NCBI GenBank assembly: GCA_045046875.1
Contig: JASFYY010000037.1
Location: forward strand, 96,509-160,508
Source: Verrucomicrobiota bacterium
GTDB taxonomy: Bacteria > Verrucomicrobiota > Verrucomicrobiia > Verrucomicrobiales > DEV007
Direction of reading: 5' to 3'
Length of the DNA stretch: 64,000 nucleotides
Positions 9,589-64,000 of the stretch are shown one piece after another (within the stretch, counting starts at the first letter, position 1; each line of letters starts with the position of its first letter). The translations under genes were made by a program, and so were the position numbers. The notes under the pieces are model-generated. The model was not told the origin of the DNA. It did not search any database and saw only the letters and a list, made by a program, of their open reading frames with translations.

Positions 9589-10476
9589 TTAGCCGAGCTC
9601 AAATGTCGTGATCCCGTAAATGTTGCTCCACGGCAGCTGTGAGGCTTTTGCAGAAGACTCACCATAATACATTCGGGCGCAGCCAAATATTTCTTTCATG
9701 TCGCTTTGCTGCGCTAATTTCATGGCTGAGGCGTTTACTTCCGGCACATCGAGAATCAATGGTTGTCCAGCGGCACGATCCCCCAAAGCGGCAAAAAGCT
9801 GGGTAGCCAATTTTTCGTTATCGGCAAACAATGGTCCGATTTTAAAACCTTCAGCGCACTCTCTTACCACCCCGGAAGCCACCAACTTCCCTTCATCCAA
9901 GATCCCCAGCGCCCGGCCGGATTCGGGCTGAATCCATGAACGAAGGAAGCGCTCACGATCGAAACCAAAATGGCGACGATCATAGTCCGCTACCATTGCA
10001 AAAGGCAGCTCACCCAAGTCCACACAACCTTGCGACACTGCTGTTTTTGCTTTCACCCTTCTTCCTACACCTTGCATTCTCAAATTGCGATGAGCAAACA
10101 CAAAGCCACCCTTGGCATACCAATCCTGCATATCAAAAACCCCGTCCATCGCAATCGAGGCACCTGGGGCAAGACGAGCCAACAAGGCGTCCCGGCGATG
10201 AAACCACAAACGCGTTCCGATCCCCTTGCCACGCAAATCCGCGCGTACGATGAAAAAACCCATGAAGCCAAATTGCCCCCCATAGGAAACCACTGAGCCC
10301 GCAGCAACCACTTCCCCATCAAGCTCAACTCCGAGATAACCATTCGGATCTGTTTGCCAAAAAATATCGCCGTCGTGCAACCCTGGATTCCACCCTTCTG
10401 CTCCTGCCCACTTCATAACCTGCTCAAACTCAGCCCTTACCAAGGGGCGTATCTTCAACACATCCAAATCCATCAC
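9589..10476 (-). CDS. GNAT family N-acetyltransferase (two-domain, YitH-like)
   Basis: Acetyl-CoA motif LRGKGIG; EGWNPG, KIGPLFAD and C-terminal GITTFELG. Confidence 0.85.
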   Translation of the reverse strand: MMDLDVLKIRPLVRAEFEQVMKWAGAEGWNPGLHDGDIFWQTDPNGYLGVELDGEVVAAGSVVSYGGQFGFMGFFIVRADLRGKGIGTRLWFHRRDALLARLAPGASIAMDGVFDMQDWYAKGGFVFAHRNLRMQGVGRRVKAKTAVSQGCVDLGELPFAMVADYDRRHFGFDRERFLRSWIQPESGRALGILDEGKLVASGVVRECAEGFKIGPLFADNEKLATQLFAALGDRAAGQPLILDVPEVNASAMKLAQQSDMKEIFGCARMYYGESSAKASQLPWSNIYGITTFELG

Positions 10477-11838
10477 TTATTGTTTTTTCTTAGTTTTACC
10501 AATACGTGGTCGCTGAGCCGGGTTGGGCATCTTATCCAAAACCACTTTCAACCGCTGCCTTGCATTTTTGACATCCCCCGTCACATCCTCGGCGTTCACC
10601 CCCGCTTTTTCCAACTCATCCGCATTCACATCATAAAAACGCCCATCAGCGTAAAGTTTATACTGTTGATCCCGCGCAAACCTCGCTTTAACAAATTTTC
10701 CCCAACGCGGATCATAATGACAAAACACCCAATTCCGCGGATTTCCTTTTTCCCCCAGCACTTGTGGCAAAAAACTACGCCCATCCAATTCGGACTCCCC
10801 ACTGACGTCCACTCCGGCGATCTCTGCAAAAGTTTGATAAATATCCGTAAAATCCACCAAATCCTCACACATCACACCCGATGTCTTTCCTTTCCAATAC
10901 ACGATCAATGGAACATGAGTGCCCGCATTGGGTGTCGTGCCTTTCCCTCCCTGGTAATCCCTGCCATCTACCAACTTCGTGATTATGCTTGGATGGGTAC
11001 CATTGTCGCCGGTAAAAATCACCACCGTATTCTCAAGAACACCAACTTCATCCAATTTGTCCACCAACTGCCCGACGATTTTGTCGGCATACTCGACCAT
11101 TTCCTTAAAGTGACGTTTATTCCTTTTCATCCGATTCTCGGGATTTTTCCACTCAGGTGAATCCGGGGTCGGCACAAAAGGGTCATGGGTGAGCACCATG
11201 GGGTAATAGACCAAAAAAGGTTCATCCTTTTTCCTCTCAATAAAATCCAAAAGGTAGTCCCTAAAAATATCCGGCCCATATTGCCCATTCAGCTTTTGGG
11301 CAGGTTCACCATTGCGCTCGATCAACGGGTCAGCAAAACGCTCTCCTTCTTTTGTCCGCAGCTCAGTCAACTGCCACAGACACCATTCATCAAAACCGAA
11401 TGCCCGGGGTCGGCGATGATTCTTACGCAAGCTCGCCGGATACTGCTGAGGATAAGACAAGCCGTTCAACTGCCACTTGCCAGCAATCGCTGTTGCGTAT
11501 CCTGCCTGCTTCACAAGCTGTGCAAATGTTCGCTCACCGTTACGCAACAAGCCAAACTCTTCGTAATTGCGAAAATTATACTTGCCCGTCATGATCTGCA
11601 CCCTCGATGGCGTGCATAAAGGCGTTGAAAAACAATGCGTGAATCGCACCCCTTCCTTTGCCAAACGATCTAAATTCGGCGTTTGGTAATCCTTACTGCC
11701 ATTGCATCCCAAACATTCATAACCCATATCATCGGCCATGATCAGCACGATGTTCGGTTTGCCTCCGGCAAAAGTCACGCAACACCCTGCCAGCAGGATG
11801 AGGAAAACGATTCCAGTTTTATTCCAATCAATGCCCAT
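10477..11838 (-). CDS. Secreted arylsulfatase (formylglycine-dependent)
   Basis: KPNIVLIMADD, CTPSR, GKWQL, GDNG. Start reassigned to ATG 11838 (signal peptide; 11-bp overlap with upstream gene). Confidence 0.92.
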   Translation of the reverse strand: MGIDWNKTGIVFLILLAGCCVTFAGGKPNIVLIMADDMGYECLGCNGSKDYQTPNLDRLAKEGVRFTHCFSTPLCTPSRVQIMTGKYNFRNYEEFGLLRNGERTFAQLVKQAGYATAIAGKWQLNGLSYPQQYPASLRKNHRRPRAFGFDEWCLWQLTELRTKEGERFADPLIERNGEPAQKLNGQYGPDIFRDYLLDFIERKKDEPFLVYYPMVLTHDPFVPTPDSPEWKNPENRMKRNKRHFKEMVEYADKIVGQLVDKLDEVGVLENTVVIFTGDNGTHPSIITKLVDGRDYQGGKGTTPNAGTHVPLIVYWKGKTSGVMCEDLVDFTDIYQTFAEIAGVDVSGESELDGRSFLPQVLGEKGNPRNWVFCHYDPRWGKFVKARFARDQQYKLYADGRFYDVNADELEKAGVNAEDVTGDVKNARQRLKVVLDKMPNPAQRPRIGKTKKKQ

Positions 11839-12190
11839 TGTCCGACTCCTTGACATTGGGCCAAATGAACAAGCCCCCCCACCCGGCCAGAAACAATAAT
11901 CCCCCAAGTGGAGTGATCGCTCCCAACCACAGAATATTCGTCAGCGACAGAGCATACAAGCTGCCAGAAAAAACCAACACCCCCATCAAAAAACAAAATG
12001 CTACTTTCGACCGGGTCGGTGCCACATAAGCTAGGACCCAAATAGCCAGAGCATGGATCAAATGATAAAACACCGCCGTCTGCCAAGTCGACAACCTATC
12101 ATTCTCCGTCAGAATCCCCTCCAACCCGTGAGCGCCGAAAGCCCCCAGACCGATACCTAAAAGCATCAAAAGCGCTCCCGTTCGTTTCAT
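11828..12190 (-). CDS. DUF423/YgdD family small membrane protein
   Basis: GAFGAHGL, WQTAVFYHLIH, FSGSLY, GAITPLGG; start set at MKRTG. Confidence 0.88.
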   Translation of the reverse strand: MKRTGALLMLLGIGLGAFGAHGLEGILTENDRLSTWQTAVFYHLIHALAIWVLAYVAPTRSKVAFCFLMGVLVFSGSLYALSLTNILWLGAITPLGGLLFLAGWGGLFIWPNVKESDNGH

Positions 12191-12284
12191 GATTGTCCCC
12201 TCATTGTTTTTCATCTTCATCGCGATTTTAATGTTTTTTGAATCATTACGCAACTTTTGTGTGTTAATGTCGTTTCATCCACAG

Positions 12285-12734
12285 ATGAACACTCCTGAAG
12301 AACAAGATCCAAGCTGGCAATTGTTATTAAAATCCAAGCCCAAGCAAGCCAATCCGGCATTTGTTCGCGATGTCGTGCGGGAAGTGCGCAAGCTTGAAGC
12401 CGATGCTCCGAACAGCACATGGAGTCTATTTCTTTCCTGGCTCAAGCGCCCGGCCATTGCACTGCCTGTAGCCGTCGGAGCCACCGCGGCCATATTCGCG
12501 TCACTCACTCTGCTCCCAAGTTCCTCCTCTACCACAAACTCAACCGCCGCTATGATCGCGAGCGCCGACACCCTGCTCCCTGCCGATCAAATTCCAAGCA
12601 GTGCCCTCATCGAATCGAACATCACCGAAGATATCGAACAGATCGACTACATCGACGAACTCGTCACGACCGCCGACCCTGCCGACCTCGATGACGATGC
12701 CCTGGCCAGCCTTTTTGCCAGCACATCCTTCTGA
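12285..12734 (+). CDS. Hypothetical single-TM protein with acidic C-terminus
   Basis: C-rich third positions typical of + strand genes here; one hydrophobic segment; start chosen to avoid overlapping DUF423. Confidence 0.65.
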   Translation: MNTPEEQDPSWQLLLKSKPKQANPAFVRDVVREVRKLEADAPNSTWSLFLSWLKRPAIALPVAVGATAAIFASLTLLPSSSSTTNSTAAMIASADTLLPADQIPSSALIESNITEDIEQIDYIDELVTTADPADLDDDALASLFASTSF

Positions 12735-12766
12735 GCTGCTACAACCACCGGCTCTACGACACTGGC

Positions 12767-13369
12767 TTAAAACCGCACATCAAGCTGCAGCGCCGCTGCC
12801 AATTCTTCAGCGTATTGCTCCCGCGAAATCTCAATGCAGCCAAACTGCACCAGATGCGGATTGCTCCACTGGGTATCAAGCAGCACAAAACCCCGCTCCT
12901 TCAGGTGATTCACCAAATGCACCAAAGCCACTTTTGATGCATCTGTCCGCTGAGTGAACATCGATTCGCCAAAAAAAGCCCCGCCAATGGCCACCCCATA
13001 CAACCCTCCCACCAAGCTCCCTTGATACCAACTCTCTACGCTGTGAGCCCAGCCCGAATCGAACAAACGGCTGTAGCTCGCTCGAATACCGGCGCTGATC
13101 CAGGTTTCTTCCCGATCCGCACAGTTCTGAATAACCGCAGGGAATGCCGTGTCCATCCGGATCTCATATTCATTTTTTTTCAGCGCCCGTTTCAAGCCAC
13201 GAGGAACGTGGAAATCATCTAAGGGAATCACCCCACGGGGGTCGGGCGCATACCAATCAATCTGTTCCCGGCCCGATTCATCCACATCAGCCATAGGAAA
13301 CACACCCATCTGATACGCGCGCAGTAGCGTATCGGCATCAATTTCTCCGCTCATTTTATTAACCATCAC
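12767..13369 (-). CDS. aat: Leucyl/phenylalanyl-tRNA--protein transferase
   Basis: AYQMGVFPM, AHSVESW, GGLYGV, FFGESMF, DASKVAL, LLDTQ. Confidence 0.95.
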   Translation of the reverse strand: MMVNKMSGEIDADTLLRAYQMGVFPMADVDESGREQIDWYAPDPRGVIPLDDFHVPRGLKRALKKNEYEIRMDTAFPAVIQNCADREETWISAGIRASYSRLFDSGWAHSVESWYQGSLVGGLYGVAIGGAFFGESMFTQRTDASKVALVHLVNHLKERGFVLLDTQWSNPHLVQFGCIEISREQYAEELAAALQLDVRF

Positions 13370-13448
13370 CTGACTGCTAAGTCTTGAATTCTTATTGGCA
13401 AGCTCTTCATTCTAGGCCACAATAGGAACGCTTATCAAAGTAAATAAG

Positions 13449-13937
13449 ATGCAAAAAGCCATTTATCCAGGAAGTTTCGATCCCCTGCACAACGGACACC
13501 TCGACGTCATCGGTCGAGCCGCCCGCCTATGTGACTCGGTCGTCGTAGCCGTTGCCGCGAATGCCTCGAAAAACGCCCTGCTCTCCACCGCTGAACGCAT
13601 TGATATCATTAAAAACGCCACCGCCCACCTACCGGAAGTCTCAGTAACAGAGTTCGAAGGCCTGCTGGTTGATTTTGTCATCGAACAAAAAGCCGACTGC
13701 ATCATCCGCGGATTGCGTGCTATATCAGACTTTGAATATGAATTCCAAATGGCGCTGATGAACCGCCAACTGCGCTCCACGGTCGAAACCATCTTTTTGA
13801 TGCCCAGCCAGGAGCACATCTACCTCAGCTCGCGCATTATCAAAGAAATTGCAGCCACCGGCAACGATGTGCGCGATTTCATCTCCGAAAAAGCCGCCCT
13901 CGCGGTTGAAAAAAAACTGGCTCTCAAAAAAATATAA
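13449..13937 (+). CDS. coaD: Phosphopantetheine adenylyltransferase
   Basis: YPGSFDPLHNGH, IRGLRAISDFEYE, SSRIIKE. Confidence 0.97.
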   Translation: MQKAIYPGSFDPLHNGHLDVIGRAARLCDSVVVAVAANASKNALLSTAERIDIIKNATAHLPEVSVTEFEGLLVDFVIEQKADCIIRGLRAISDFEYEFQMALMNRQLRSTVETIFLMPSQEHIYLSSRIIKEIAATGNDVRDFISEKAALAVEKKLALKKI

Positions 13938-13941
13938 CACG

Positions 13942-14433
13942 ATGATTATTCGATTGGGTGACCTCAAAAGCGATCAAGCGACCTTGGAAGGTGTGCTGGA
14001 CTCCGATATTTTCCAGATAGATACGGATGGCGACGTTCGCTCCATCGGACCGATCAGCTGCGAACTTCACACCGCGATCAGCGGTGATCACCTCATCGTT
14101 GATGGAAAACTCACCGTCCCCACCCAACTTCGCTGCGTCAACTGCCTCGAAGATTTCTCCTACCAACACGATTTTAACGACTACCACGCAGAAATTAAAA
14201 TAGAAGACAACAACATGCTCGACCTGACAGAGCACATCCGCGACGATATTTTATTAGAAATCCCCCAATACCCTCATTGCACCACCGGCAGTATTCCTGA
14301 TCGAGTTTGCCCCATGACCGGCCCCTTTTCCTTTGAAAAACAAGGTACGCAGCCTCCCTCAGAGGGCACTGAAGAAAAATCTCCTGCTGATATTTGGGCT
14401 GCTTTGGAAGATTTAGACACCAAAGACTCTTAA
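13942..14433 (+). CDS. yceD: YceD/DUF177 family protein
   Basis: CVNCL, LDLTEHIRDDILL, C-terminal WAALEDL; canonical position before rpmF. Confidence 0.85.
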   Translation: MIIRLGDLKSDQATLEGVLDSDIFQIDTDGDVRSIGPISCELHTAISGDHLIVDGKLTVPTQLRCVNCLEDFSYQHDFNDYHAEIKIEDNNMLDLTEHIRDDILLEIPQYPHCTTGSIPDRVCPMTGPFSFEKQGTQPPSEGTEEKSPADIWAALEDLDTKDS

Positions 14434-14449
14434 GAACGCTTAAGTCCCC

Positions 14450-14477
14450 TTGACAAAGTTATTTTTTGACCGTTAAT
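14450..14477 (+). promoter_or_regulatory. Putative sigma70 promoter for rpmF
   Basis: Perfect TTGACA at 14450; weak -10 GTTAAT at 14472; AAGGA RBS before ATG 14500. Confidence 0.4.
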
Positions 14478-14499
14478 CCCACACCAACCAAGGATAGAT

Positions 14500-14682
14500 A
14501 TGGCAGTCCCAAAACGTAGAACTTCGAAAATGAAAAAACGCCTTCGCCGCAGCGGTCAGCGCTGGCGTATGGCTAAACTGAAAACTTGTCCGGAATGCGA
14601 TAGTGCAGTCCGTTCACATACGGCTTGCCCTTCTTGCGGCTACTACCGTGACCGTCAGGTTTTGACAATCGACACTTTCTAG
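14500..14682 (+). CDS. rpmF: 50S ribosomal protein L32 (zinc-binding CxxC form)
   Basis: MAVPKRRTSK; CPEC…CPSCGYY. Confidence 0.97.
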   Translation: MAVPKRRTSKMKKRLRRSGQRWRMAKLKTCPECDSAVRSHTACPSCGYYRDRQVLTIDTF

Positions 14683-14725
14683 TTGCTCGCCAATCATGGG
14701 GCGGCTTCCCATCTGAACAATAATC

Positions 14726-14756
14726 AGGGGCCACCTATTGCGGGTGGCTCTTTTAT
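14726..14756 (+). terminator. Intrinsic terminator after rpmF
   Basis: GGGCCACCT-attgc-GGGTGGCTC stem (G-U pairs) followed by TTTT. Confidence 0.65.
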
Positions 14757-14838
14757 TTCAAATCCGAAGCCAACACCGCCTGTCGATTGGAACGCTACAA
14801 ATCCGCTATTTTCACCACCCACATCCTCCTGAACCAAC

Positions 14839-15846
14839 ATGAAAATTGCTGTTGATGCTATGGGAGGAGACAAAGCTCCTCAATCGGTGGTCGCCGGAGC
14901 CAGGGAAGCTCTATCAGAACTGCCCTTCATCGAGCGACTCTTCCTCGCCGGTGACGAAAACAGCATCAAAGCCGAAATGGATCGGCAGCAATTCAGCCAC
15001 CGCAAAATAGAAATCGTGCACGCACCCGAAACGGTCGGCATGGAGGAAGAAGCAGTGAAATCTGTTCGCCGCAAAAAAAAATCGTCGATCAGTATTGCCG
15101 TGGACCTGATAAAAAACGGTGACTGCGAAGCCGTCGTCAGTGCAGGAAATACCGGAGCCGCCGTGGCGGCCACCACCATCAAACTGCGCACCTTGCCAGG
15201 AGTCGAACGTGCCGGCATCGCCTCTGCCCTGCCCAATGAAAACGGCCCCTGCAACATCATCGACGCAGGTGCCAATGTCGATGCCAAACCCAGCCATTTG
15301 TTGCAATACGCCATCATGGGCAGTGTTTACGCAGAACATGTGCAAGGAAAAAAGAATCCTGTCGTCGGATTGATGTCAGTAGGAGAAGAAGACAGTAAAG
15401 GAAACAGTTTCACCAAAGAAGTATTCACCCTTTTGAAAGACTCCCCGCTTAATTTCAAAGGCAATATCGAAGGCCACGACCTGTTCGAGTCCGCCATCGA
15501 TGTGGTGGTTTGCGACGGATTCATCGGCAACGTCGTGCTCAAAAGCTGCGAAGCCACTGCCAAGGTGATGTTCAAATGGCTCAAGACCGAGCTCAACATG
15601 TCCCCTTTTAGGCAAATGGGGGCACTGATGGCCAAAGGCGCGTTCATCGCTACCTTGGAGCGAGGAAATTACGAAAATTATGGTGGCAGCCCACTTCTCG
15701 GAGTAAATGGCACCTGCATCATTGCTCATGGCTCCAGTTCTCCTCTGGCGATCAAAAATGCCATTCGGGTCGCAGCGGAATCCGTAAGGCATGAAGTGAA
15801 CCCTCATATCGAAGAAAAAATTAATAAATACGGACTGATCGGATGA
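14839..15846 (+). CDS. plsX: Phosphate acyltransferase PlsX
   Basis: IAVDAMGGD, VSAGNTGA, VCDGFIGNVVLK, HGSS. Confidence 0.97.
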   Translation: MKIAVDAMGGDKAPQSVVAGAREALSELPFIERLFLAGDENSIKAEMDRQQFSHRKIEIVHAPETVGMEEEAVKSVRRKKKSSISIAVDLIKNGDCEAVVSAGNTGAAVAATTIKLRTLPGVERAGIASALPNENGPCNIIDAGANVDAKPSHLLQYAIMGSVYAEHVQGKKNPVVGLMSVGEEDSKGNSFTKEVFTLLKDSPLNFKGNIEGHDLFESAIDVVVCDGFIGNVVLKSCEATAKVMFKWLKTELNMSPFRQMGALMAKGAFIATLERGNYENYGGSPLLGVNGTCIIAHGSSSPLAIKNAIRVAAESVRHEVNPHIEEKINKYGLIG

Positions 15847-54728: not shown

Positions 54729-55997
54729 ATGAATAGAAGAAACTTCCTCAACAGCTCCGCCACAGGACTAGCCGCCTTTTCCTGGATGACCCCTATGGCA
54801 GACTTACTCGCGGCCAACACACAAAACCCTCGAAACAAAAAACAAGGCGCCCGGCCAAAATCAGTCATCCTGCTCTGGCTCGCTGGTGGCCCCAGCCAAC
54901 TGGAAACCTTCGACCCCCACCCCGATTCCGCTACCTCCTTCGGCAGTCAAGCCATCTCCACCACGGTCAAAGGCCTGCAACTCGGCGCAGGATTGGAACA
55001 AACGGCCGAAGTCATGCAGGACGTCACCCTACTGCGCTCCGTCATCAGTAAAGAAGGTGATCATGAACGGGCTTCTTACAACATCAAAACCGGCTACAGA
55101 CCTAACCCGACCGTTATCCACCCATCCATAGGCGCGATCCTCTGCCACCAACTCCCCCAGCCTAAAATGGAGATCCCCACCCATATCTCTATCCTGCCCA
55201 ATCAATGGCCCGCCCGTGGCGGTTACATGGGAGCCAAGTTTGACGCCTTTCAAATGGGAGACCCCCGACAAGCCGTGCCCGACGTGAACTCCTACGCCAA
55301 CGAACAACGCCAGACTCAGCGCAAAAAAGGACTCTCCATCGTCGAGAGCACCTTCCTCAAAGGACGCATGGCTCAACTCGATTCACAAAAAACCTTTCAC
55401 CGCCAAAGCATGGCCAACGCCCGCCGCCTAATGGCCTCCGATCAGCTCAAAGCCTTTGACGTCAGCGAAGCGCCCAAAGAAGAACGCCTCGCATACGGTG
55501 ACACCCGCTTCGGACGTGCTTGTTTTGCCGCCGTCCGTCTGGTCGAGGCAGGCGTGCGCTGCATCGAAGTCACCCTCACCGGATGGGATACCCATGTTAA
55601 TAACCACGAAAACCAGGGCAAACGAATCAAAACCCTAGACCCCGCATTCGCCGCCCTGATCAAAGACCTCAAACGCCGGGAATTACTCGATGATACCATC
55701 GTCTTATGCGGTGGGGAATTCGGACGCACCCCCCAGCTCAACGGCGTAGAAGGCCGTGATCACTGGCCAAAAGGATTCAGCATGGCCATCGCCGGCGGTG
55801 GTTTTTCCGGTGGTCGCACTATCGGAGCCACCGACCCTAGCGGAGAAAAAGAAAGCCCCGTCAATCCCGTCCGCGTGCAAGACATCCACGCCACCATCCA
55901 GCACAAAATGGGCCTCGACTTCGAACAAGAACTGATCACCCCCGTCGGCCGCCCCATCGCCCTCAGCGAAGGCAATCTCATTCAAGAACTGTTATAG
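54729..55997 (+). CDS. DUF1501 family protein, Tat-exported
   Basis: MNRRNFL; LWLAGGPSQLETFDP, GWDTH, GEFGRTP, GRDHW. Confidence 0.92.
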   Translation: MNRRNFLNSSATGLAAFSWMTPMADLLAANTQNPRNKKQGARPKSVILLWLAGGPSQLETFDPHPDSATSFGSQAISTTVKGLQLGAGLEQTAEVMQDVTLLRSVISKEGDHERASYNIKTGYRPNPTVIHPSIGAILCHQLPQPKMEIPTHISILPNQWPARGGYMGAKFDAFQMGDPRQAVPDVNSYANEQRQTQRKKGLSIVESTFLKGRMAQLDSQKTFHRQSMANARRLMASDQLKAFDVSEAPKEERLAYGDTRFGRACFAAVRLVEAGVRCIEVTLTGWDTHVNNHENQGKRIKTLDPAFAALIKDLKRRELLDDTIVLCGGEFGRTPQLNGVEGRDHWPKGFSMAIAGGGFSGGRTIGATDPSGEKESPVNPVRVQDIHATIQHKMGLDFEQELITPVGRPIALSEGNLIQELL

Positions 55998-56059: not shown

Positions 56060-57070
56060 ATGACCTTATCCAAACTCTTCAGCCCAGTCACCGCACTTAT
56101 CGCCATCAGCCCCCTCTTGCTACTGCCTCACGCCGCCCGTAGCCAGGCCGTAGACAAAAACGGCATCGAAAGAAGCCCTGAGGAAATCAAAAAAGCCATC
56201 AGCGTCGTCGAGCAAAGACTCGAACGCCAACAAAGCCGCGTCTCCGACCTTCGCGCTGAACTGATCCGCCTCGACGGTCGTATCGAAAAAGAAGTCGACC
56301 AAATCGTCAAAGCACTTGAAAAAGTCGGCGACTCCAAAGACTCCCGCACCCGTGTCGCACAAACCAAAGGCGAAGTCATCGAAGGCCTGAAAAAAAGCAT
56401 CGGCATCTATCAACAAAAACGCTCCCAGATTCGGGCGCATCTAGTCAAACTCCGCTCCGGAATGGAAAAATCCGAACTCGAAGGCGATATGAAAAAATTT
56501 GATCAAATGTCGGAAAAACGCATCGAGCAAATCATGGAACTTTCCAAAACCCTGACCACCCACAAAGATTACAAAAAATACAACACCTACGTCTCCTCAA
56601 GCAATGACTGGGGGTGGGGATGGGGAACCGTTCAAGAAAAAAACGAAGACTACACCCAAAACAAACGAGTCACTAACATCACCGACAAAGAACGCAAAGA
56701 GGTGGTCGCGGCTTTACAAAAAAGCATCGCTGATCTAGGCACCCAGAACCGGGCTTTGAAAGCGCGTCTTGACTCCTCCAACTTCGCCAACCAGAAAGAT
56801 CTGATCCAGGAAGACATCGAGAGAAACCAACAAGTCATAGGCCGGCGCGAAGCCCAGCTCGAAAACATGTTAACTGCTCCCGCTCCCACCACCACCGCCA
56901 TCAGTCGCAGCGCCGCCCATCAAATGCAGCTCATGATCCGCGACATCGCCGACGACCTGAAACGTGACTTCGACACCCTCTTCCGCCGCTATTCCGAATT
57001 TGTAAAAGAACGTGCCCAAAGCAACGCCTTGATAGAACAGCTGGCCGATTTGAAAAAAATGCTCAACTAA
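56060..57070 (+). CDS. Secreted coiled-coil protein (paralog A)
   Basis: Signal peptide, heptad-rich; shares motifs with 57114-58100. Confidence 0.8.
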   Translation: MTLSKLFSPVTALIAISPLLLLPHAARSQAVDKNGIERSPEEIKKAISVVEQRLERQQSRVSDLRAELIRLDGRIEKEVDQIVKALEKVGDSKDSRTRVAQTKGEVIEGLKKSIGIYQQKRSQIRAHLVKLRSGMEKSELEGDMKKFDQMSEKRIEQIMELSKTLTTHKDYKKYNTYVSSSNDWGWGWGTVQEKNEDYTQNKRVTNITDKERKEVVAALQKSIADLGTQNRALKARLDSSNFANQKDLIQEDIERNQQVIGRREAQLENMLTAPAPTTTAISRSAAHQMQLMIRDIADDLKRDFDTLFRRYSEFVKERAQSNALIEQLADLKKMLN

Positions 57071-57113: not shown

Positions 57114-58100
57114 ATGAAACTACCTACCTTACTGATCACCGTAGTCGCCGGCTTCAGCCTGAACACGGCCACCTCACTAGGTCAGGACAGCAGCAAACCC
57201 GACCCAGCAACGGTCAAAGAAGCCATCGACATCGTCAAAACCCGACTCGAACGCCAAATGCGACGAGTCTCCGATCTGAGCGCAGAGATCATCCGCCTCG
57301 ATACCCGCATCGAACGGGAAATCGCCTACATCGTAAGTGATCTCAGCCAGGTAGGAGACTCCCGTGACTCCCGCACCGAAGTCGCCAAGCTCAAAGAAAA
57401 AGTTACCGCAGGTCTCAAACGCAGCATCGAAAAATACCAGCGGATGCGCGCGCAAGTGAACCTCGAATTGCAAAACACCCAAGCCGGTCAAACCCGGCAG
57501 GACTTAAAACAAGACCTCAAGCAGTTTGATACGCGCATTGCCAATCGGGTAGATCAAATCGTCAGCATCAGTCAATCCCTCACCACCCAAAAAGACTTCC
57601 AGGCCTACAACGACTACTTGAGGGATACCCGCTACGACCGCACCCACCACAGCGAAATCAATCGCCTGAAAAGCATGGAAAAAACCCAGAACAAACGAGT
57701 CACCCAAGTCACCGACAAACAACGCAAGGACACCATCGATGCGCTCAAACGTAGCATCGCCAGCCTGGAAAACCAAAATAAAGCGCTCGCCTCCCAACTG
57801 AATTCCATCCAATACGCTAAGCAGTCAGACATCATTCAGGAAGATATCGACCGCAACCGCCAAGCCATCATGAACCGGGACGCACAAATCAGCACGCTGC
57901 AAACTTATCAACAGAGCTTCACCATCGAGATCAGCCGGCGAGCTGCCAAAGAAAAAGAAAACCTCATCCGCGACGCCGCCACCTCCCTGAAGCGCGACGT
58001 CGACACTCTCTTCCGCTACTACACCGAGTTCCAAAAAGAGCGCAAACAACAAAACGGCCTGATGCAACAATCACAAGCCCTGCAAGCCCTACTCCCGTAA
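57114..58100 (+). CDS. Secreted coiled-coil protein (paralog B)
   Basis: Shared with paralog A: RLERQ.RVSDL, VGDS.DSRT, TQNKRVT, IQEDI.RN, LKRD.DTLFR. Confidence 0.8.
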   Translation: MKLPTLLITVVAGFSLNTATSLGQDSSKPDPATVKEAIDIVKTRLERQMRRVSDLSAEIIRLDTRIEREIAYIVSDLSQVGDSRDSRTEVAKLKEKVTAGLKRSIEKYQRMRAQVNLELQNTQAGQTRQDLKQDLKQFDTRIANRVDQIVSISQSLTTQKDFQAYNDYLRDTRYDRTHHSEINRLKSMEKTQNKRVTQVTDKQRKDTIDALKRSIASLENQNKALASQLNSIQYAKQSDIIQEDIDRNRQAIMNRDAQISTLQTYQQSFTIEISRRAAKEKENLIRDAATSLKRDVDTLFRYYTEFQKERKQQNGLMQQSQALQALLP

Positions 58101-58139
58101 AAACAAATCCCCAAATTTGCTATTACCATCCCACCACAA

Positions 58140-58445
58140 CGTGGCACGGATCGCTAGCCGAGCTGTAGCCTTCAAGTCGAAGGCAGTGCAATTTGCCGTG
58201 GCGCGGATTGGTAATTTGCCTTCGGGTAGTTTCCTTTGGACGCTACGCTCAACCCTGCTGGTTGCCTGTCTTGCTTCGCTGCGGCTGGCTCTCTCCTTTC
58301 AGTCGAGTGCGGATCCCCAACCCCACGCAAATACCATTACGTCCCACACCTCCTCCTCCCCATCGTGGCGCGGATTGGCAATCCGGCGGATCCCCCAAAC
58401 CACCCCAAACCCCACGCAATACCATTACGTCCCACACCGCCCCTC
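58140..58445 (+). repeat. Composite repeat R1 (core 58213-58317, plus an 'empty' REP copy at about 58364-58395)
   Basis: Core AATTTGCCTTCGGG…CTCCTTTCAGTCGAGTGCGGATCC is near-identical in R2-R4. Confidence 0.92.
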
Positions 58446-58477
58446 ACCTCCCCACTTCATTCTTCAGAATTCCTTGT

Positions 58478-59326
58478 TCAATTATTGCCTTCGAGTCGTA
58501 TTCTCCGACTGTCTCGCAGACTCAGCTCAACATTCCCCACCTCAACCCGATATTTCACCCCTGACCTGTGTTTTTGCTGCGCATTGTCCAAAAGTAGACG
58601 CACCCGCGTCGTTCCACTCGACGAATCTGTCACCGGACTGACAAAAGCGACTTCAGCGCTGCCCGCCTCGTCCCCCACCATCGCTCTCACCGCCACCTTC
58701 TGCCCCACTTTCAGACTTCCTACCATCTCCGCATCCACATAAATCACCAGGATCAACTGATCCAGACGCACCACCGTCATCACCAGATCCGATCCTCCGC
58801 CGACCGCCTCCGCTTCATCACGAAAAGTGCGCTCCACCACCCCATTGATCGGACTGATCAAAGTCCGCCGCTCAATCTGCACCTGGATCTGACCCACCTT
58901 CAAGCCATTCTCCTCCGCCTGCACCTCCGCCTCCATCAGGTCGGCTTCAGTGATCTCCACCTCCGCCTTGGCCCGGAACAACTCATCCGCATTCACCCCG
59001 CCTCCCTCTGAAATGCGTTCCAGTTCCGCCAAACGACGACGCTTGGTGCTCAACCTCGCCCGCGCCGCCTTTTGCTCCGCATCGCTTTTCGCCCGCAGTT
59101 GAGCGATTTTCAGCGAAACCTCCAAAATACGATTATCGAGCTTGGCCAACACCTGCCCTTTTTTTACCGTCTCCCCCTCCTTCACCGCCAGTTCCGCGAT
59201 CACCCCCGCCTCGGGGAAAGTCAAATCCACCTTCTCAACCGGCTCAGTCACCCCGATCACCTCACCACCTACCAAGCTCAACCCGGTCAACCAAAGCACC
59301 CCACAACTAACAATAAAAAACTTCAT
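58478..59326 (-). CDS. RND/ABC efflux periplasmic adaptor (membrane fusion protein), standalone
   Basis: GVIAELAVKEGETVKKGQVLAKLD, ISPINGVV, VSPVTDSSSGT; start set at MKFFIV. Confidence 0.88.
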   Translation of the reverse strand: MKFFIVSCGVLWLTGLSLVGGEVIGVTEPVEKVDLTFPEAGVIAELAVKEGETVKKGQVLAKLDNRILEVSLKIAQLRAKSDAEQKAARARLSTKRRRLAELERISEGGGVNADELFRAKAEVEITEADLMEAEVQAEENGLKVGQIQVQIERRTLISPINGVVERTFRDEAEAVGGGSDLVMTVVRLDQLILVIYVDAEMVGSLKVGQKVAVRAMVGDEAGSAEVAFVSPVTDSSSGTTRVRLLLDNAQQKHRSGVKYRVEVGNVELSLRDSRRIRLEGNN

Positions 59327-59399
59327 ATTCCTAAAAACAATTATCCCCCCCACTGTCCCAAACTGCAATAGGAAAAGCTCTCCCTACCCGCACAATACC

Positions 59400-59765
59400 A
59401 TTTACTTGTCCTCCACAGCCTGTCAGGCGATGGAGGATCCCACACTCAGCCCCTCCCCATCGTGGCATGGATGGCTTGTCCTCCATAGCCCCTAGGGCGA
59501 AGGCGGGGCAATTTGCCTTCGGGTAGCTTCCTTTGGACGCTACGCTCAACCCTGCAGGTTGCCTGCCTTGCTTCGCTGCGGCTGGCTCTCTCCTTTCAGT
59601 CGAGTGCGGATCCCCCAAAACCACCCCAAGACCCGCGCAATGCCATTACGCCCCACATCCACCAAAGCCCACCAGGCGACGGAGAATCATCCATCCCCCC
59701 CTCAAATCCCTTCCCATTCGTGTTGATTCGTGTCCATTGGTGGTTCCCCATCTCAAATCCCCCCC
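59400..59765 (+). repeat. Composite repeat R2 (core 59510-59614)
   Basis: About 250 bp shared with R3; 3' part shared with R4. Confidence 0.92.
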
Positions 59766-59769
59766 TCAT

Positions 59770-59807
59770 TTGACTCCACCTTCACCATGTATTACAATGT
59801 TTTACAT
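59770..59807 (+). promoter_or_regulatory. sigma70 promoter with overlapping palindromic operator for the AbrB-Doc TA; leaderless mRNA likely
   Basis: TTGACT(59770)-17 bp-TACAAT(59793); TGTATTACA and TGTTTTACA palindromes; ATG at 59806 with no RBS. Confidence 0.7.
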
Positions 59808-60036
59808 GACGAAGACTGTTACTAAAATTGGCAATTCCAAAGGCATTATTCTTGATTCAGCCTTGTTAGAGCTTGTCCATTGGAAGGAAGGCGACCAGTT
59901 GTCAGTAACGATGCACGACGGAGGCAGCATCACTTTTACTCCGCTAAAAGCATCTATAAAACCCGAGCAAGCCGCCGCATTGACGGATTCGATTATATCG
60001 AGCAATGATGAATTGTTCAGCAGACTTGCAAAATAA
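59806..60036 (+). CDS. AbrB/MazE-type antitoxin
   Basis: VTKIGNSKGIILD…WKEGDQL swapped-hairpin motif; TAATG overlap with toxin. Confidence 0.9.
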   Translation: MTKTVTKIGNSKGIILDSALLELVHWKEGDQLSVTMHDGGSITFTPLKASIKPEQAAALTDSIISSNDELFSRLAK

Positions 60037-60437
60037 TGCCTGCCCCCAAACACTTGAGTGTCGCTGCAGTCAAACAGATCCACTCAAGAGTGATCCATGC
60101 CCATGGCGGTGATGATGGATTGAGAGACGAAGGCCTACTGGAAAGTGCAATCGCCGCTCCACAGGCTACTTTTGCAGGTGAGGACATCATGGCCGACCAC
60201 ATTGAAATAGCGGCAGCCTACCTTTTCTACTTATGCAACAACCATCCTTTTGTTGATGGAAACAAACGCACCGCACTCGCTGCCTGCCTTGTTTTTCTCG
60301 TTTCCAATGAAGTTTTATCAGAGCAAACCGTATCTGCCTTGGATATTGATACCTGGGAAAGGCTAATCCTCAATGTTGCTTGCTCCAAAATTGACCGTGG
60401 GGAAACGACTAAAAAACTTCGTGACCTGCTAAAATAA
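60036..60437 (+). CDS. doc: Death-on-curing (Doc) family toxin
   Basis: GLRDEGLLESA; HPFVDGNKRTA Doc-type Fic motif. Confidence 0.92.
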   Translation: MPAPKHLSVAAVKQIHSRVIHAHGGDDGLRDEGLLESAIAAPQATFAGEDIMADHIEIAAAYLFYLCNNHPFVDGNKRTALAACLVFLVSNEVLSEQTVSALDIDTWERLILNVACSKIDRGETTKKLRDLLK

Positions 60438-60454
60438 ATCTGCCCCCCTCCCCC

Positions 60455-60735
60455 ACGCAATACCAAATACCATTAGCTTGCCCGCCAAAGTCTGTCAGGC
60501 GACGGAGGATTCCACATCACCCCCCTCCCCATCGTGGCATGGATTGCTTGCCGCGCCATAGCCCCTAGGGCGAAAAGGGGGGCAATTTGCCTTCGGGTAG
60601 TTGTCCTTTGGACGCTACGCTCAACCCTGCAGGTTGCCTGTCTTGCTTCGCTGCGGCTGGCTCTCTCCTTTCAGTCGAGTGTGGATCCCCCCAAACCACC
60701 CCAAGACCCGCGCAATGCCATTACGCCCCACGCCC
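60455..60735 (+). repeat. Composite repeat R3 (core 60584-60689)
   Basis: Direct repeat of R2. Confidence 0.92.
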
Positions 60736-60739
60736 CCGA

Positions 60740-60767
60740 TTGACAAAAACGCCACCTGTGGTAAATT
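60740..60767 (+). promoter_or_regulatory. sigma70 promoter for the RHH-VapC TA; leaderless mRNA likely
   Basis: TTGACA(60740)-16 bp-TAAATT(60762) with extended TGn; ATG at 60773. Confidence 0.62.
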
Positions 60768-60772
60768 ACCCC

Positions 60773-61024
60773 ATGATAAAAGCGCACGTGCAAATACCCG
60801 ACGAACTTTACCGCGCCGCAAAAAAAGTAGCCGCAAGTAAAGAGTGGTCCTTTGCTGAAATAACAAGAAGAGGTCTGGAGTATATGACGAGCGTCAATCA
60901 AGTGCCCGCTACTCAGAGTGATTGGGCGTTGCCACTGGTAAAAGTAAAAGGGGGTAGACCCGTCAGTGAAAAAGCGCTCGAAGAAGCAAAAAACGCAGAG
61001 CGGGATGCCTCATTCCTGATTTGA
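60773..61024 (+). CDS. Ribbon-helix-helix antitoxin (VapB-like)
   Basis: AHVQIPDELYRAAK…SFAEITRRGLE RHH pattern, upstream of a PIN toxin. Confidence 0.82.
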   Translation: MIKAHVQIPDELYRAAKKVAASKEWSFAEITRRGLEYMTSVNQVPATQSDWALPLVKVKGGRPVSEKALEEAKNAERDASFLI

Positions 61025-61046
61025 GAAGCTCCAACAAACAACACCG

Positions 61047-61487
61047 ATGCTGAGCATTGATACCAATATCCTTTTCTATGCCATGGTTGAAAACAGCCAA
61101 TTTCACGAAAGTGCGCGGTATTTTTTGAATCAACATGCCAGAGACACTGAAATGGCGATGTCCGAACTCGTATTGGTAGAATTATACAATCTGCTACGCA
61201 ATGACAAACTGACCGGCAGAAAAACAAGCGCCAGCGAAGCCGCGCAGTGGATACAGCAGATACGCTCGAACCGCGCATGGAGCTTAATCGAAAATGCCCC
61301 CATCATGGAAGAAGTCTGGAACATAGCAGCTCAAGCCCCCTTTGCCCGTCGCCGCATTTTCGACGTCCGCCTCGCTCTGACCCTCCACCATCATGGAGTC
61401 ACCCATTTTGCCACTGCCAATACCAAGGATTTTCAAGGCTGCGGATTCGAAAAAGTTTGGAACCCGTTGAAAAACAAAAATCCCTAA
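61047..61487 (+). CDS. vapC: VapC PIN-domain ribonuclease toxin
   Basis: IDTNIL, E in LVEL, FDVRLA, TANTKDF: conserved acidic PIN residues. Confidence 0.92.
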   Translation: MLSIDTNILFYAMVENSQFHESARYFLNQHARDTEMAMSELVLVELYNLLRNDKLTGRKTSASEAAQWIQQIRSNRAWSLIENAPIMEEVWNIAAQAPFARRRIFDVRLALTLHHHGVTHFATANTKDFQGCGFEKVWNPLKNKNP

Positions 61488-61514
61488 TCCCCAGGAAAAC
61501 TCAAATGGGCAGGA

Positions 61515-61860
61515 CTGCTTGTCCTCCTGTGGCACAAATTACTAGCCGAGCTGTAGCCCAAGGCGAAGGCGGGGCAATTTGCCGTGGCGCGGATTGGCAA
61601 TTTTCCTTCGGGTAGCTTCCTTTGGACGCTACGCTCAACCCTGCAGGTTGCCTGTCTTGCTTCGCTGCGGCTGGCTCTCTCTCCCGCGAATGCGGGATCG
61701 AGTGCGGATCCCTCATACCCCCCCCAAGACCATTACGCCCCACATCCCTCCCTCAAATCCCCTCCCATTCGTGTTGATTAGTGTAAATTTGCCTTCGGAC
61801 AGTAAGCTCCGGCTGTCTCCTTTTAGTCGGCTGTGGTTCCCCATCTCAAATTTCTCATTT
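61515..61860 (+). repeat. Composite repeat R4 (core 61599-61712, plus mini-core 61786-61832)
   Basis: Upstream part matches R1; terminal hairpin replaced by CCCGCGAATGCGGG. Confidence 0.9.
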
Positions 61861-61891
61861 TAAATCTCAATTGATTACGAAGGCCTTGCTT

Positions 61892-62104
61892 TTGACAAAA
61901 ACAACTCATATTCGATAATGGAAATCGCTACGCAGCAGGAGTAATACCATCAAAACATAATTATTATTCCTCAAAATAAGCGTATTTTAATATTTTTTCC
62001 TCAAAAAAACGGATTATCCTACGATTTATCCTTTACTAAAGCTTAAGCGATAATGTAATATTTTTTTCATACATTTCGCTTTTTTTAATAATTTTTCCTC
62101 AAAA
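61892..62104 (+). promoter_or_regulatory. Putative fic promoter plus AT-rich ~30-bp periodic repeat array
   Basis: TTGACA(61892)-16 bp-GATAAT(61914); TTCCTCAAAA at 61967, 61997 and 62095. Confidence 0.5.
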
Positions 62105-62118
62105 ATAAAGGTTTTTCC

Positions 62119-63603
62119 ATGAAGCAACTCGGTTACACATGGCTGATCTCCCACTATAAGCTCAAGGTTCGCCCTCTGTTGCACAGTTCATTCATAGGAA
62201 CACGGCAGGCCATCAGAGAGTGTGCGGACGGCACTTTGGAGGAACACTACGTCAGCCGCTACGACCCCGGAGACGATCCACTCGACCATATTGTGTTCGC
62301 GCTAAAATACGACGAGCTGGATCTTGACATCATGGCTAAGGTTTTTCAGAAGATTTCTCCGGAGAAAGTGGCTGAATTTGTGGCTCGGACTCCGACTGGA
62401 AAGTTTGCTAAGCAAATCGGATTCTGGTTCGAAATGCTGACCAGCCAGGAAGTTCCGCTACAGGGAAAACTTATCGGCAACTACACTCCCTTGCTGGACC
62501 CGCAACGCTATGTCGTTGCTTCAGGGCCGGTTCGAAATCCACGGTGGCGAATATTGAATAACGCTATCGGTGATCGACGTTTCATGCCAATCATTCGACG
62601 AACAAAGGCGATTCGCTCTATTGAGGAAACTGATTGGGAGGGACTCATCTCGGAAACCATAAGCCCTTTCTCCGATGCAGTGCTCAATCGCGCTCTGTCA
62701 TACCTCTATTTCAAGGAAACCAAATCCTCGTTCGCCATAGAACGAGAAGCACTAGGCACAAATAGAACCGAGAAGTTCGTCACCCTCCTTCATCGCGCCG
62801 GAACAGAAAATAAACCACTCAGTGAAGGGTCTCTCACTGAACTTCAGAACGACATCATGGATGCGCGTTACCAAGAGAGTGGTTATCGAACCATTCAGAA
62901 CTACGTCGGCGAAACCACGGTTAACTTCCGCGAGATAATCTATCTGATTGGCTCCCCGCCCGGCTTCCTTCGAGATATTATGGAAGGCTTGGAAGGATAT
63001 TTTACCGCGAGTGCGGGGGTTCACCCCATTTTGCGCGCCGCAGCGATCTCGTTTCCGTTTGTCTTTATTCATCCATTCGAGGATGGCAACGGACGCATCC
63101 ACCGATACATCATCCACGACGTCATGGCCAGAGGCGGAATCGGCGGCAAGGGGCTTGTCATCCCTGTGTCAGCCGAAATCTTGGCAGACATGAGAGCCTA
63201 CGACACCTGTTTGGAACAATTCTCCAAACCTTTACTCTCGGTAGCCGAATACGACCTCAACACCAAAAGTGAGATGACAGTCGAGAACCCAGCTATGATC
63301 GAGGGGTTCTACCGTTACCCGGACGTAACGCAACAGGTTGAGTATCTAGCTAAAATGATAGAACTTGCGATCCAAGAAAGCCTTCCCAATGAGTTCCGCT
63401 TCCTCGAAAATCTCGACCAAGCCCGTCAAACAATACGAGAGATTGTGGACATGCCAGACAGGAAACGGGAATCCCTGCTTATGCGGCTACATCGTAATAA
63501 GGGTAGGCTTGCCAGTAAACGTCGTGAAAGTGAGTTCAAAGAGCTCACAAACGAAGAAATCCAGAAGATTGAGCAAGCGTTTCAAGAAGCGTTCAAAGAT
63601 TAA
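62119..63603 (+). CDS. Fic family protein (large, ~490 aa type)
   Basis: Canonical HPFEDGNGRIHR motif; ETKSSFAIE; C-terminal IVDMPD helical domain. Confidence 0.92.
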   Translation: MKQLGYTWLISHYKLKVRPLLHSSFIGTRQAIRECADGTLEEHYVSRYDPGDDPLDHIVFALKYDELDLDIMAKVFQKISPEKVAEFVARTPTGKFAKQIGFWFEMLTSQEVPLQGKLIGNYTPLLDPQRYVVASGPVRNPRWRILNNAIGDRRFMPIIRRTKAIRSIEETDWEGLISETISPFSDAVLNRALSYLYFKETKSSFAIEREALGTNRTEKFVTLLHRAGTENKPLSEGSLTELQNDIMDARYQESGYRTIQNYVGETTVNFREIIYLIGSPPGFLRDIMEGLEGYFTASAGVHPILRAAAISFPFVFIHPFEDGNGRIHRYIIHDVMARGGIGGKGLVIPVSAEILADMRAYDTCLEQFSKPLLSVAEYDLNTKSEMTVENPAMIEGFYRYPDVTQQVEYLAKMIELAIQESLPNEFRFLENLDQARQTIREIVDMPDRKRESLLMRLHRNKGRLASKRRESEFKELTNEEIQKIEQAFQEAFKD

Positions 63604-63720
63604 ACATCCACCCTCACACTTCACACTTCAAACTTCCCCCTCATCTCATTTTCTCACCCCTAACTAAAACCATCTTCATCCTGCCCGTCCATGCCAGTCC
63701 CCCATCATTTCTTACCTTCC

Positions 63721-63830
63721 TTTGCCTTCGGGTTATTTCCTTTGGACGCTTCGCTCAACCCTTCAGCTTGCCTGTCTTCTCCCGCAGACGCGTGATACGG
63801 CTGGCGGGCTCCTTACCGTCGGTTGCTCTT
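63721..63830 (+). repeat. Diverged core repeat R5
   Basis: TTTGCCTTCGGGT…TCCTTTGGACGCTTCGCTCAACCC…TTGCCTGTCTT…CTCCTTACCGTCG. Confidence 0.85.
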
Positions 63831-63881
63831 CTCTGTATTCCTTCGTAGCTTCTCAAAAACAACTTGTCAAGAATTGTTGCC

Positions 63882-63909
63882 TGACCCCATTTTCGTGACC
63901 CCATTTTCG
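63882..63909 (+). repeat. 14-bp tandem duplication of a REP half-site
   Basis: TGACCCCATTTTCG x2. Confidence 0.85.
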
Positions 63910-63910
63910 G

Positions 63911-63947
63911 GTAATTTGCCTCGTGGCGCGGATTGGCAATCCGCGGA
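63911..63947 (+). repeat. R6: core 5' end plus intact REP palindrome
   Basis: GTAATTTGCCT followed by GTGGCGCGGATTGGCAATCCGCG. Confidence 0.75.
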
Positions 63948-64000
63948 TCGCCCGCTCGCCCGCTCGCCCGCTCGCCCGCTCGCCCGCTCGCCCGCTCGCC
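63948..64000 (+). repeat. 8-bp tandem repeat (TCGCCCGC)n, at least 6.6 copies, running off the window end
   Basis: Read directly from the sequence. Confidence 0.95.

Follow-up and report, generated by a model that had tools for sequence, protein, structure and literature searches.

Contig C37 (GenBank JASFYY010000037.1, 160 kb) belongs to the draft genome of a Verrucomicrobiota bacterium of the order Verrucomicrobiales (163 contigs, 5.59 Mb, 51% G+C), and its last 64 kb constitute the window analysed here. In the final 6 kb of the window, small gene modules that include predicted toxin-antitoxin (TA) pairs, a Fic-domain gene and an orphan adaptor gene are separated by spacers, each containing a copy of the same repeated element, hereafter the core. 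A preliminary description of this DNA, made from the letters alone, had proposed a platform for the capture or shuffling of gene cassettes, organised like an integron. Through comparison of this genome (G000) with five congeners (G001-G005, of which G005 is the sister species) and with one genome of a second genus (G036), we arrive with moderate confidence at a different reading: the segment is probably where an accessory island begins that is specific to the lineage and changes fast, with TA modules, a Fic gene and an orphan adaptor. Its spacers are filled with mosaic repeats akin to repetitive extragenic palindromic (REP) sequences and bacterial interspersed mosaic elements (BIMEs), which would act as portable homology.

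Gene modules and core copies in the window

The features of the segment, in window coordinates, are as follows.

57114..58100, + strand: left flank gene, second of two paralogues (328-336 aa) without a Pfam family; left border of the island
58101..58477, + strand: spacer 1, a mosaic; core copy 1 at 58215-58325 (model match 58232-58275); two U-type units with palindrome GCGGATTGGCAATCCGC
58478..59368, - strand: orphan HlyD-family periplasmic adaptor, 296 aa (Pfam HlyD_3 1.9e-16, HlyD_D23 2.5e-13)
59369..59796, + strand: spacer 2; core copy 2 at 59512-59622 (model match 59529-59572), then module P and a promoter-like site at 59770-59798
59797-60036, + strand: MazE/AbrB-like antitoxin (Pfam MazE_antitoxin 0.0018, under the cut-off)
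60036-60437, + strand: Doc toxin (Pfam Fic/DOC 1.2e-19)
60438..60772, + strand: spacer 3; core copy 3 at 60587-60697 (model match 60604-60647); promoter-like site at 60740-60767
60773-61024, + strand: putative antitoxin, 83 aa, no Pfam family
61047-61487, + strand: PIN-domain toxin (Pfam PIN 1.4e-9)
61488..62118, + strand: spacer 4; core copy 4 at 61601-61725 (model match 61618-61661); T-type module at 61789-61850; promoter-like site at 61892-61919
62119..63603, + strand: Fic-domain protein, 494 aa, with an HPFEDGNGR motif (Pfam Fic 6.6e-12)
63604..64000, + strand: spacer 5; core copy 5 at 63721-63781 (5' part only); 30-nt motif at 63864-63893; U-type unit start at 63921-63943; (TCGCCCGC)n tandem

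Two adjacent paralogues (56060-57070 and 57114-58100; 46% protein identity), neither with a Pfam family, form the left flank, and beyond them every intergenic gap holds a core. A repeat search of the window returned a 58-nt family with five copies, at 58215, 59512, 60587, 61601 and 63721, and a 128-nt family that spans the first four core copies. The five copies all lie on the + strand at spacings of 1297, 1075, 1014 and 2120 nt and are 81-100% identical. An nhmmer profile and a covariance model run with filters off agreed: each gave exactly these five as strong matches across the 64 kb, and all of them are on the + strand. The sole further match is weak and lies inside a coding region (55451-55481, E 5.5e-5), and neither search found a strong match in the first 58 kb. 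Each pair of successive cores encloses one gene module: the adaptor on the - strand, the MazE/AbrB-like antitoxin with Doc, the 83-aa ORF with the PIN toxin, and the Fic gene. On these points the preliminary description stands, since it had reported same-oriented repeats in every gap (five + strand copies at 58.2-63.8 kb) with one module between copies, and had found the core missing from the preceding 58 kb. Its core was a recurring unit of about 105 bp; the five copies are real, but the fifth shares just the 5' ~60 nt with the others and the core is nested in longer composite repeats. A supposed partial copy at 63913 is a different module (CGTGGCGCGGATTGGCAAT..., family D5), which also occurs at 58196, 58363 and 61582.

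The Doc and PIN modules have the architecture of type II TA systems, that is, small two-gene operons with toxins of known families, and are predicted TA modules whose antitoxins are either weak matches (MazE) or without a family. Directly upstream of the three + modules lie sigma-70-like sites that agree with the consensus at 10-11 of 12 positions and fall within blocks conserved with G005. As consensus matches, these sites accord with the earlier claim that the cargo modules carry promoters of their own.

Base 64000 is the end of contig C37 and falls within a perfect (TCGCCCGC)n octamer tandem (63940-64000) that runs into the contig end, so the array is truncated by the assembly. No other contig of the draft carries this terminal tandem, and linking contigs through the octamer was ruled out because C37 alone has it.

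A conserved hairpin within dispersed mosaic repeats

The core is a conserved 44-nt motif with variable tails, in which TTTGGACGCT-N-CGCT precedes, and GCCTGTCT follows, a 6-bp hairpin with a 3-nt loop. Across 31 copies from six genomes, this stretch is almost invariant and the hairpin covaries: 94.6% of cells pair and five of the six pairs show compensatory change, values that 0 of 500 shuffles reached, and shifting the partner columns drops pairing to 10-40%. Core copy 4 bears an additional CCCGC-GAAT-GCGGG hairpin. The fold energy of whole core copies shows no excess over shuffles (z -1.55 to +0.44), and the repeat search found no inverted pairs of the core in the window. As for features of a miniature inverted-repeat transposable element, neither the core nor the 267-nt unit shared by spacers 2 and 3 is bounded by terminal inverted repeats, and there is no clear target-site duplication at the core insertion point relative to G005.

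The core lies inside longer mosaic spacers built of modules that recur separately elsewhere in the genome. By BLAST, spacer 2 matches spacer 3 at 91% identity along 267 nt, and spacer 1 matches spacer 4 at 84% along 226 nt. Exact-pattern counts of the non-core modules amount to 21-50 in this genome: the start of the U-type unit, CGTGGCRYGGAT, has 38 copies and the unit end, CGCAATRCCATTA, has 23, and the small palindrome GCGGATTGGCAATCCGC occurs as a half-site 50 times and as a perfect 17-mer three times. U units also carry the palindromes GCGGATTG-G-CAATCCGC and GCAAT-ACC-ATTGC, and further spacer modules have a TTCG-containing start. A 30-nt motif, TTGTCAAGAATTGTTGCCTGACCCC... (window 63864-63893), has 17 genome copies at up to four changes; its position differs between the two islands compared below, after Fic in G000 and between the adaptor and Fic in G005. 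Upstream of the window (G000:C37:75616-75982), about four U/X-type units form a tandem run between two genes with a period of ~97 nt.

Nine strong core matches are present in G000, five of them in the island and one each on contigs C87, C50, C146 and C68. The island thus holds five of the nine within 6 kb, far above the expectation for an even spread. At E<=0.01 the covariance model matched 10 sites in G000 (the nine strong ones included), 19 in G001, 4 in G002, 25 in G003, 2 in G004, 3 in G005 and 10 in G036. Other genera searched gave few matches, mostly weak (best E 1.3e-11), and exact-pattern scans of public genome and metagenome contigs, which may have excluded G000 itself, gave 0 loci in each collection and no further copy of the G000 version of the core. 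The U-type unit start was found at 27 loci in the genome collection, 25 of which lie on many contigs of two Verrucomicrobia/Verrucomicrobiales metagenome-assembled genomes. The core is a low-copy dispersed element of the genus. The genome-wide search that the preliminary description had asked for, with hundreds of scattered copies as the outcome that would speak against it, returned nine strong copies, five of them here.

The mosaic repeats as a whole are more widespread. Spacer sequences match 99 repeat clusters on 62 contigs by BLAST, located between ORFs and with their modules joined in varying order; five of the 99 lie in the 6 kb of the island, an enrichment of about fifty-fold. The four non-island core copies of G000 sit between ordinary genes, one of them adjoining an integrase remnant. 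Around 18 other repeat loci, the 44 of 103 ORFs nearest the repeats were searched against Pfam; nearly all were of ordinary or housekeeping type (PheT, peptidase M3, Mrp/ParA, amidohydrolase and others), and a TA-type gene was present at two of the 18 loci. Conversely, among 28 PIN, ParE and Fic genes outside the island, one lies within 1 kb of a repeat cluster (4.0% of random segments do). Because the neighbours are ordinary and a single TA gene of 28 is near a cluster, the repeats are generic and show no genome-wide TA bias. An association of repeats with TA genes does not extend, as a general rule, beyond the island.

A repeat with a maintained hairpin could serve the genes beside it. The repeats would then be functional cis elements, not substrates of recombination, that end transcripts, stabilise mRNA or insulate independently promoted toxin operons from one another, as REPs are said to do in 3' untranslated regions. 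The compensatory changes in the hairpin are what such a role would predict; within the island, every copy stands either behind the 3' end of a + module or ahead of a promoter, and by crude ORF calls U-type units start downstream of a co-directional ORF in 24 of the 34 cases with an upstream ORF called. Yet there is no terminator-like or promoter-like site inside the core, and searches at the repeat sites returned neither a tRNA nor an Rfam family, the latter even at E up to 1. On C50 the core is antisense to both neighbours, in G004 it is antisense to Doc, and the sister island works without the core. We regard a cis-regulatory role as unlikely.

Cargo turnover between sister species

The pair of flanking genes is conserved in four of the five congeners, and a 2.9-kb flank block is 94% DNA-identical to G005. 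In G001, G002 and G003, the flank is followed by GNAT, DUF423, Aat, CoaD, YceD and PlsX genes, with neither island nor repeats; an island at this flank was found in two of the six genus genomes searched, G000 and G005. Their content and order differ. From the flank, G000 carries the adaptor, the Doc module, the VapC (PIN) module and Fic (A-D-V-F), whereas G005 carries a zeta-like gene with a small ORF, the adaptor, Fic, the VapC module, an ORF6N remnant, the Doc module and a Phd-PIN pair (Z-A-F-V-O-D-P), followed by more genes up to the contig end. All modules are oriented alike in the two genomes. The G000 assembly contains none of the cargo peculiar to G005 (zeta-like module, ORF6N remnant, Phd-PIN) and has the Doc and VapC modules once each. 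The suggestion that cassette order and content are not fixed among relatives is therefore upheld, with permuted order, extra cargo and the same orientation in G005. The ORF6N-domain gene of the G005 island (L032 4598-5040) is seemingly broken by a frameshift.

The shared modules have also diverged unequally. DNA identity to G005 is 91% for the adaptor and 94.9% for the Fic block (61704-63629), and only 82.3% for the Doc block (59762-60439) and 82.7% for the VapC block (60735-61476). For the Doc protein, identity is 80% to G004 vs 76% to G005; for comparison, a housekeeping protein of 457 aa shares 69% with its G004 counterpart and 97% with that of G005. Cargo turnover and horizontal replacement at this locus are real.

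The borders of the exchanged segments do not point to the core. Between G000 and G005, cassette homology runs from the -35 box to within 2-40 nt of the stop codon, and each cassette is abutted by different repeat modules in the two genomes, leaving no fixed cargo-repeat border. With filters off, the covariance model found no match to the core in the G005 island; its syntenic spacers hold U units without the core and read GGGGCAATCCGCAGATCCCC where G000 has GGGGCAATTTGCC-[core]-GAGTGCGGATCCCC. Relative to the G005 spacers, the core is nested in the small palindrome of a U unit, and it appears to be recent in the G000 island, arriving after the split from G005. Since the G005 array has cassettes but no core, the core is not the site of cargo turnover, and its proposed role as capture site falls away.

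Both islands come from fragmented drafts, and module order depends on the assemblers. The permutation could in that case be unreal, the 163-contig draft having been misjoined across repeats. Contig C37 indeed ends in a repeat, at least six other contigs begin or finish in spacer modules (C6, C28, C35, C64, C77 and C128), and the short-word contigs from public runs break at repeats. An artefact of this kind is nevertheless very improbable: cargo content differs as well as order, with three modules of G005 absent from the G000 assembly; the junction of each cassette with its own spacer is unique sequence; exact repeats are short because the core copies differ from each other by 4-16%; and misjoining leaves the repeats themselves unexplained.

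Public runs were compared as short-word contigs at 90% likeness, not as raw reads, and missing cover in them may merely mean alleles under 90%; these runs are not counted as evidence. In runs X4, X5 and X1 the flank, adaptor and Fic are covered and Doc and VapC almost uncovered; in run X2 the flank, adaptor and Doc module are covered and VapC and Fic are not. Three public runs contain a joint of 58102 to 58355, like the flank-to-U junction of G005, and an 818-nt X2 contig joins the Doc cassette to a module of the spacer-4 type. Both are weak hints only, the joint having just 31-42 letters on its shorter side.

In the window, a GNAT-sulfatase-DUF423-Aat-CoaD-PlsX block lies at 9589-15843 (G000:C37:106100-112351), 46 kb upstream of the flank and on the same strand, whereas in G001-G003 it adjoins the flank genes; this points to a rearrangement in the lineage of G000 and G005. 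The junction showed no repeats and gives no clue to the far end of the island. The genome also carries a very large sulfatase family, one query giving tblastn matches on more than 60 contigs.

Candidate mechanisms and related systems

One competitor to a hypervariable island with portable homology is a site-specific system other than an integron, in which the hairpin repeats are sites of a Y1/HUH enzyme or tyrosine recombinase encoded elsewhere and circles with one module and one site integrate. Several observations are in keeping with it: the covarying hairpin has invariant flanking bases, the five copies lie on one strand with one module between neighbours, and in G005 the modules are reordered but keep their orientation. 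Matches to PF01797 (Y1_Tnp) number 15 in the genome, and those to PF00589 eight. None of the latter is on C37, however, no recombinase gene was found near the locus on this 160-kb contig, and the contig breaks off within the array. A Y1_Tnp match lies within ~600 nt of the start or end of at least five contigs (C2, C18, C109, C141 and C1). A link to REP-associated tyrosine transposases (RAYTs) through the 30-nt motif, the one repeat whose neighbourhood was checked for Y1 genes, was not borne out, as only one of its 17 copies is near such a gene.

A recombinase at the end of C146, beside a partial core, was considered as the far end of the array. It is a frameshifted C-terminal fossil of a tyrosine recombinase, ~70 aa long (L002 8035-8570), with a repeat directly after it in G000, and it is a fossil in G005 too (L038 8928-9122). 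Because the orthologous G005 site is the same remnant in ordinary chromosome, it is not the far end, and no recombinase or HUH enzyme of the kind the preliminary description invoked can be tied to the locus. In keeping with a site-specific system, cargo at the same site is present in one species and absent from the other: G005 has a 777-bp antitoxin/ParE module between remnant and repeat, ~15 nt upstream of the repeat, and G000 is without it.

Elsewhere, about 14 sites outside the island were inspected individually, and with such uneven sampling the cassette-like loci among them are suggestive. One of the two strong core copies of G005 is 130 nt from a HipA gene, a core-like element in G004 stands just after the Doc cassette in opposite orientation, and the remaining multi-copy core contexts are ordinary genes. 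Site-specific integration has to contend with this reversed element, with the cassettes of the G005 island that lack the core, with cargo borders that do not fall at one repeat position, with most copies across the six genomes being single and beside ordinary genes, with TA genes that are not associated with repeats genome-wide, and with the fossil state of the one recombinase lead. We consider such a system improbable. Its fuller form, in which a HUH or tyrosine recombinase beyond the contig end integrates one-module circles at the hairpin repeats, so bracketing and shuffling TA, AbiE, ATPase and Fic genes, is marginally less probable still.

We favour instead, at the confidence given above, an island maintained by general recombination. 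The island would be a permissive region in which selfish repeats and self-promoted TA units both accumulate. The core would have multiplied within the island after the split from G005, reaching five copies on one strand, whether through gene conversion or unequal exchange between neighbouring U units or through targeted insertion. RecA-type recombination among the repeats, within the array or with DNA from relatives, would then delete, permute and replace modules, and direct repeats as the homology would keep module orientation without a dedicated enzyme.

Several points weigh against this scenario. At locus L085 of a congener, direct repeats of ~170 nt (56-223 and 1566-1731; 93-99% identical) contain the core motif and bracket one gene, for a 390-aa AAA_14/DUF4143 ATPase, beside a cardiolipin-synthase-like gene; at L050 2501-4304, also of a congener, an AbiEi/AbiEii pair lies exactly between two same-orientation U-type units. 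Bracketing of single accessory genes by direct repeats, as at these two loci, is the pattern expected from one-site integration of circles. Comparison of L085 with the candidate empty site L024 was given up, the spacers being too diverged to align. The conserved hairpin and conserved single-stranded flanks of the core suggest recognition by a protein. Five copies on one shared strand have a chance of 1/16 if independent. We infer both the homologous exchange and the core's amplification through gene conversion; none of the junctions seen is explicable solely by crossing-over in a repeat, and the C87 copy, at 85-87% identity to the island copies, resembles them as closely as most island pairs resemble each other, which fits transposition equally. 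Finally, both assemblies break inside the island, and a recombinase gene may lie just beyond.

[quoted passage not shown] The attC sites are imperfect palindromes of ~57-141 nt, bounded by R'' (RYYYAAC) and R' (GTTRRRY) and folding as a single strand, and integrons are reported in Verrucomicrobia (Cury et al. 2016, PMC4889954). Going by that account, the island resembles them as a TA-rich, one-orientation array of single modules with a recurring separator, variable order and content and no integrase nearby (PMC4889954). Unlike attC arrays, none of the five spacers has an R''/R' pair (RYYYAAC...GTTRRRY, 55-145 nt apart), and the sole pair in 58000-64000 is inside the adaptor gene (59048-59104), with shuffles giving a mean of 1. 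On the R-box scan and fold tests we reject an attC or CALIN identity, in agreement with the preliminary description's remark that attC ends are missing. The repeats are also 84-96% alike over 100-270 nt rather than alike in structure alone, the + modules have promoter-like sites of their own (consensus matches only) where integron cassettes are mostly promoterless, and the element that recurs between modules is scattered next to ordinary genes and missing from the array of the sister species. Of the proposed capture or shuffling platform, what persists is the turnover of order and content and the lack of attC; the core is not a capture site, cargo borders are unfixed, there is no single-strand fold signal, and the repeats are generic.

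The locus appears closest to REP/BIME-type mosaic repeats and, more loosely, to populations of REPINs. REP sequences are short extragenic palindromic repeats (PMC3733652). The island repeats share with them small palindromic units and other modules joined in variable mosaics, an intergenic, chromosome-wide location, clusters and tandem runs, and restriction to a lineage. BIMEs are mosaic clusters of REP sequences. Differences from both are the copy number, in tens rather than hundreds (nine strong copies for the core), the lack of a recognised GTAG or CGTC tag beside the palindromes, the long conserved non-palindromic flanks of the 44-nt motif, and the lack of a demonstrated link to a RAYT gene. 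REPINs, inverted REP doublets, and RAYTs, typically single-copy and flanked by their REPs (PMC3116915, PMC3337134), invite a looser comparison: G000 also has hairpin-bearing, non-autonomous repeat populations in a genome with Y1-type HUH homologues (15 PF01797), but its core copies are single or direct, with no inverted core pairs.

The island also recalls the variable defence and TA hotspots between conserved core genes described in PMC10250203, with a position fixed by a conserved flank and content that is variable and horizontally replaced. In Neisseria, "minimal mobile elements" are flanked by repeats. As in such hotspots and elements, repeats here offer homology for exchange; unlike in hotspots, the left flank alone is known, the density and variety of spacer repeats are unusual, and the island is present in two of six genus genomes.

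Overall, if a hypervariable island is the right reading, the locus is a look-alike, in which dispersed REP-like repeats give a TA island the look of a cassette array, and comparison with a sister genome suffices to tell the two apart. The analysis also contributes a structured repeat family, 44 nt long and with a hairpin that covaries, from an uncultured Verrucomicrobiales genus. It also bears on the movement of minimal promoter-plus-operon TA units, homologous modules occupying different positions in the same island of two species. The Doc and VapC modules have diverged far beyond what surrounds them, and direct repeats enclose an accessory gene in three places. Should a cassette system prove true instead, TA, AbiE, ATPase and Fic genes would be shuffled by it between strains of uncultured Verrucomicrobiales.

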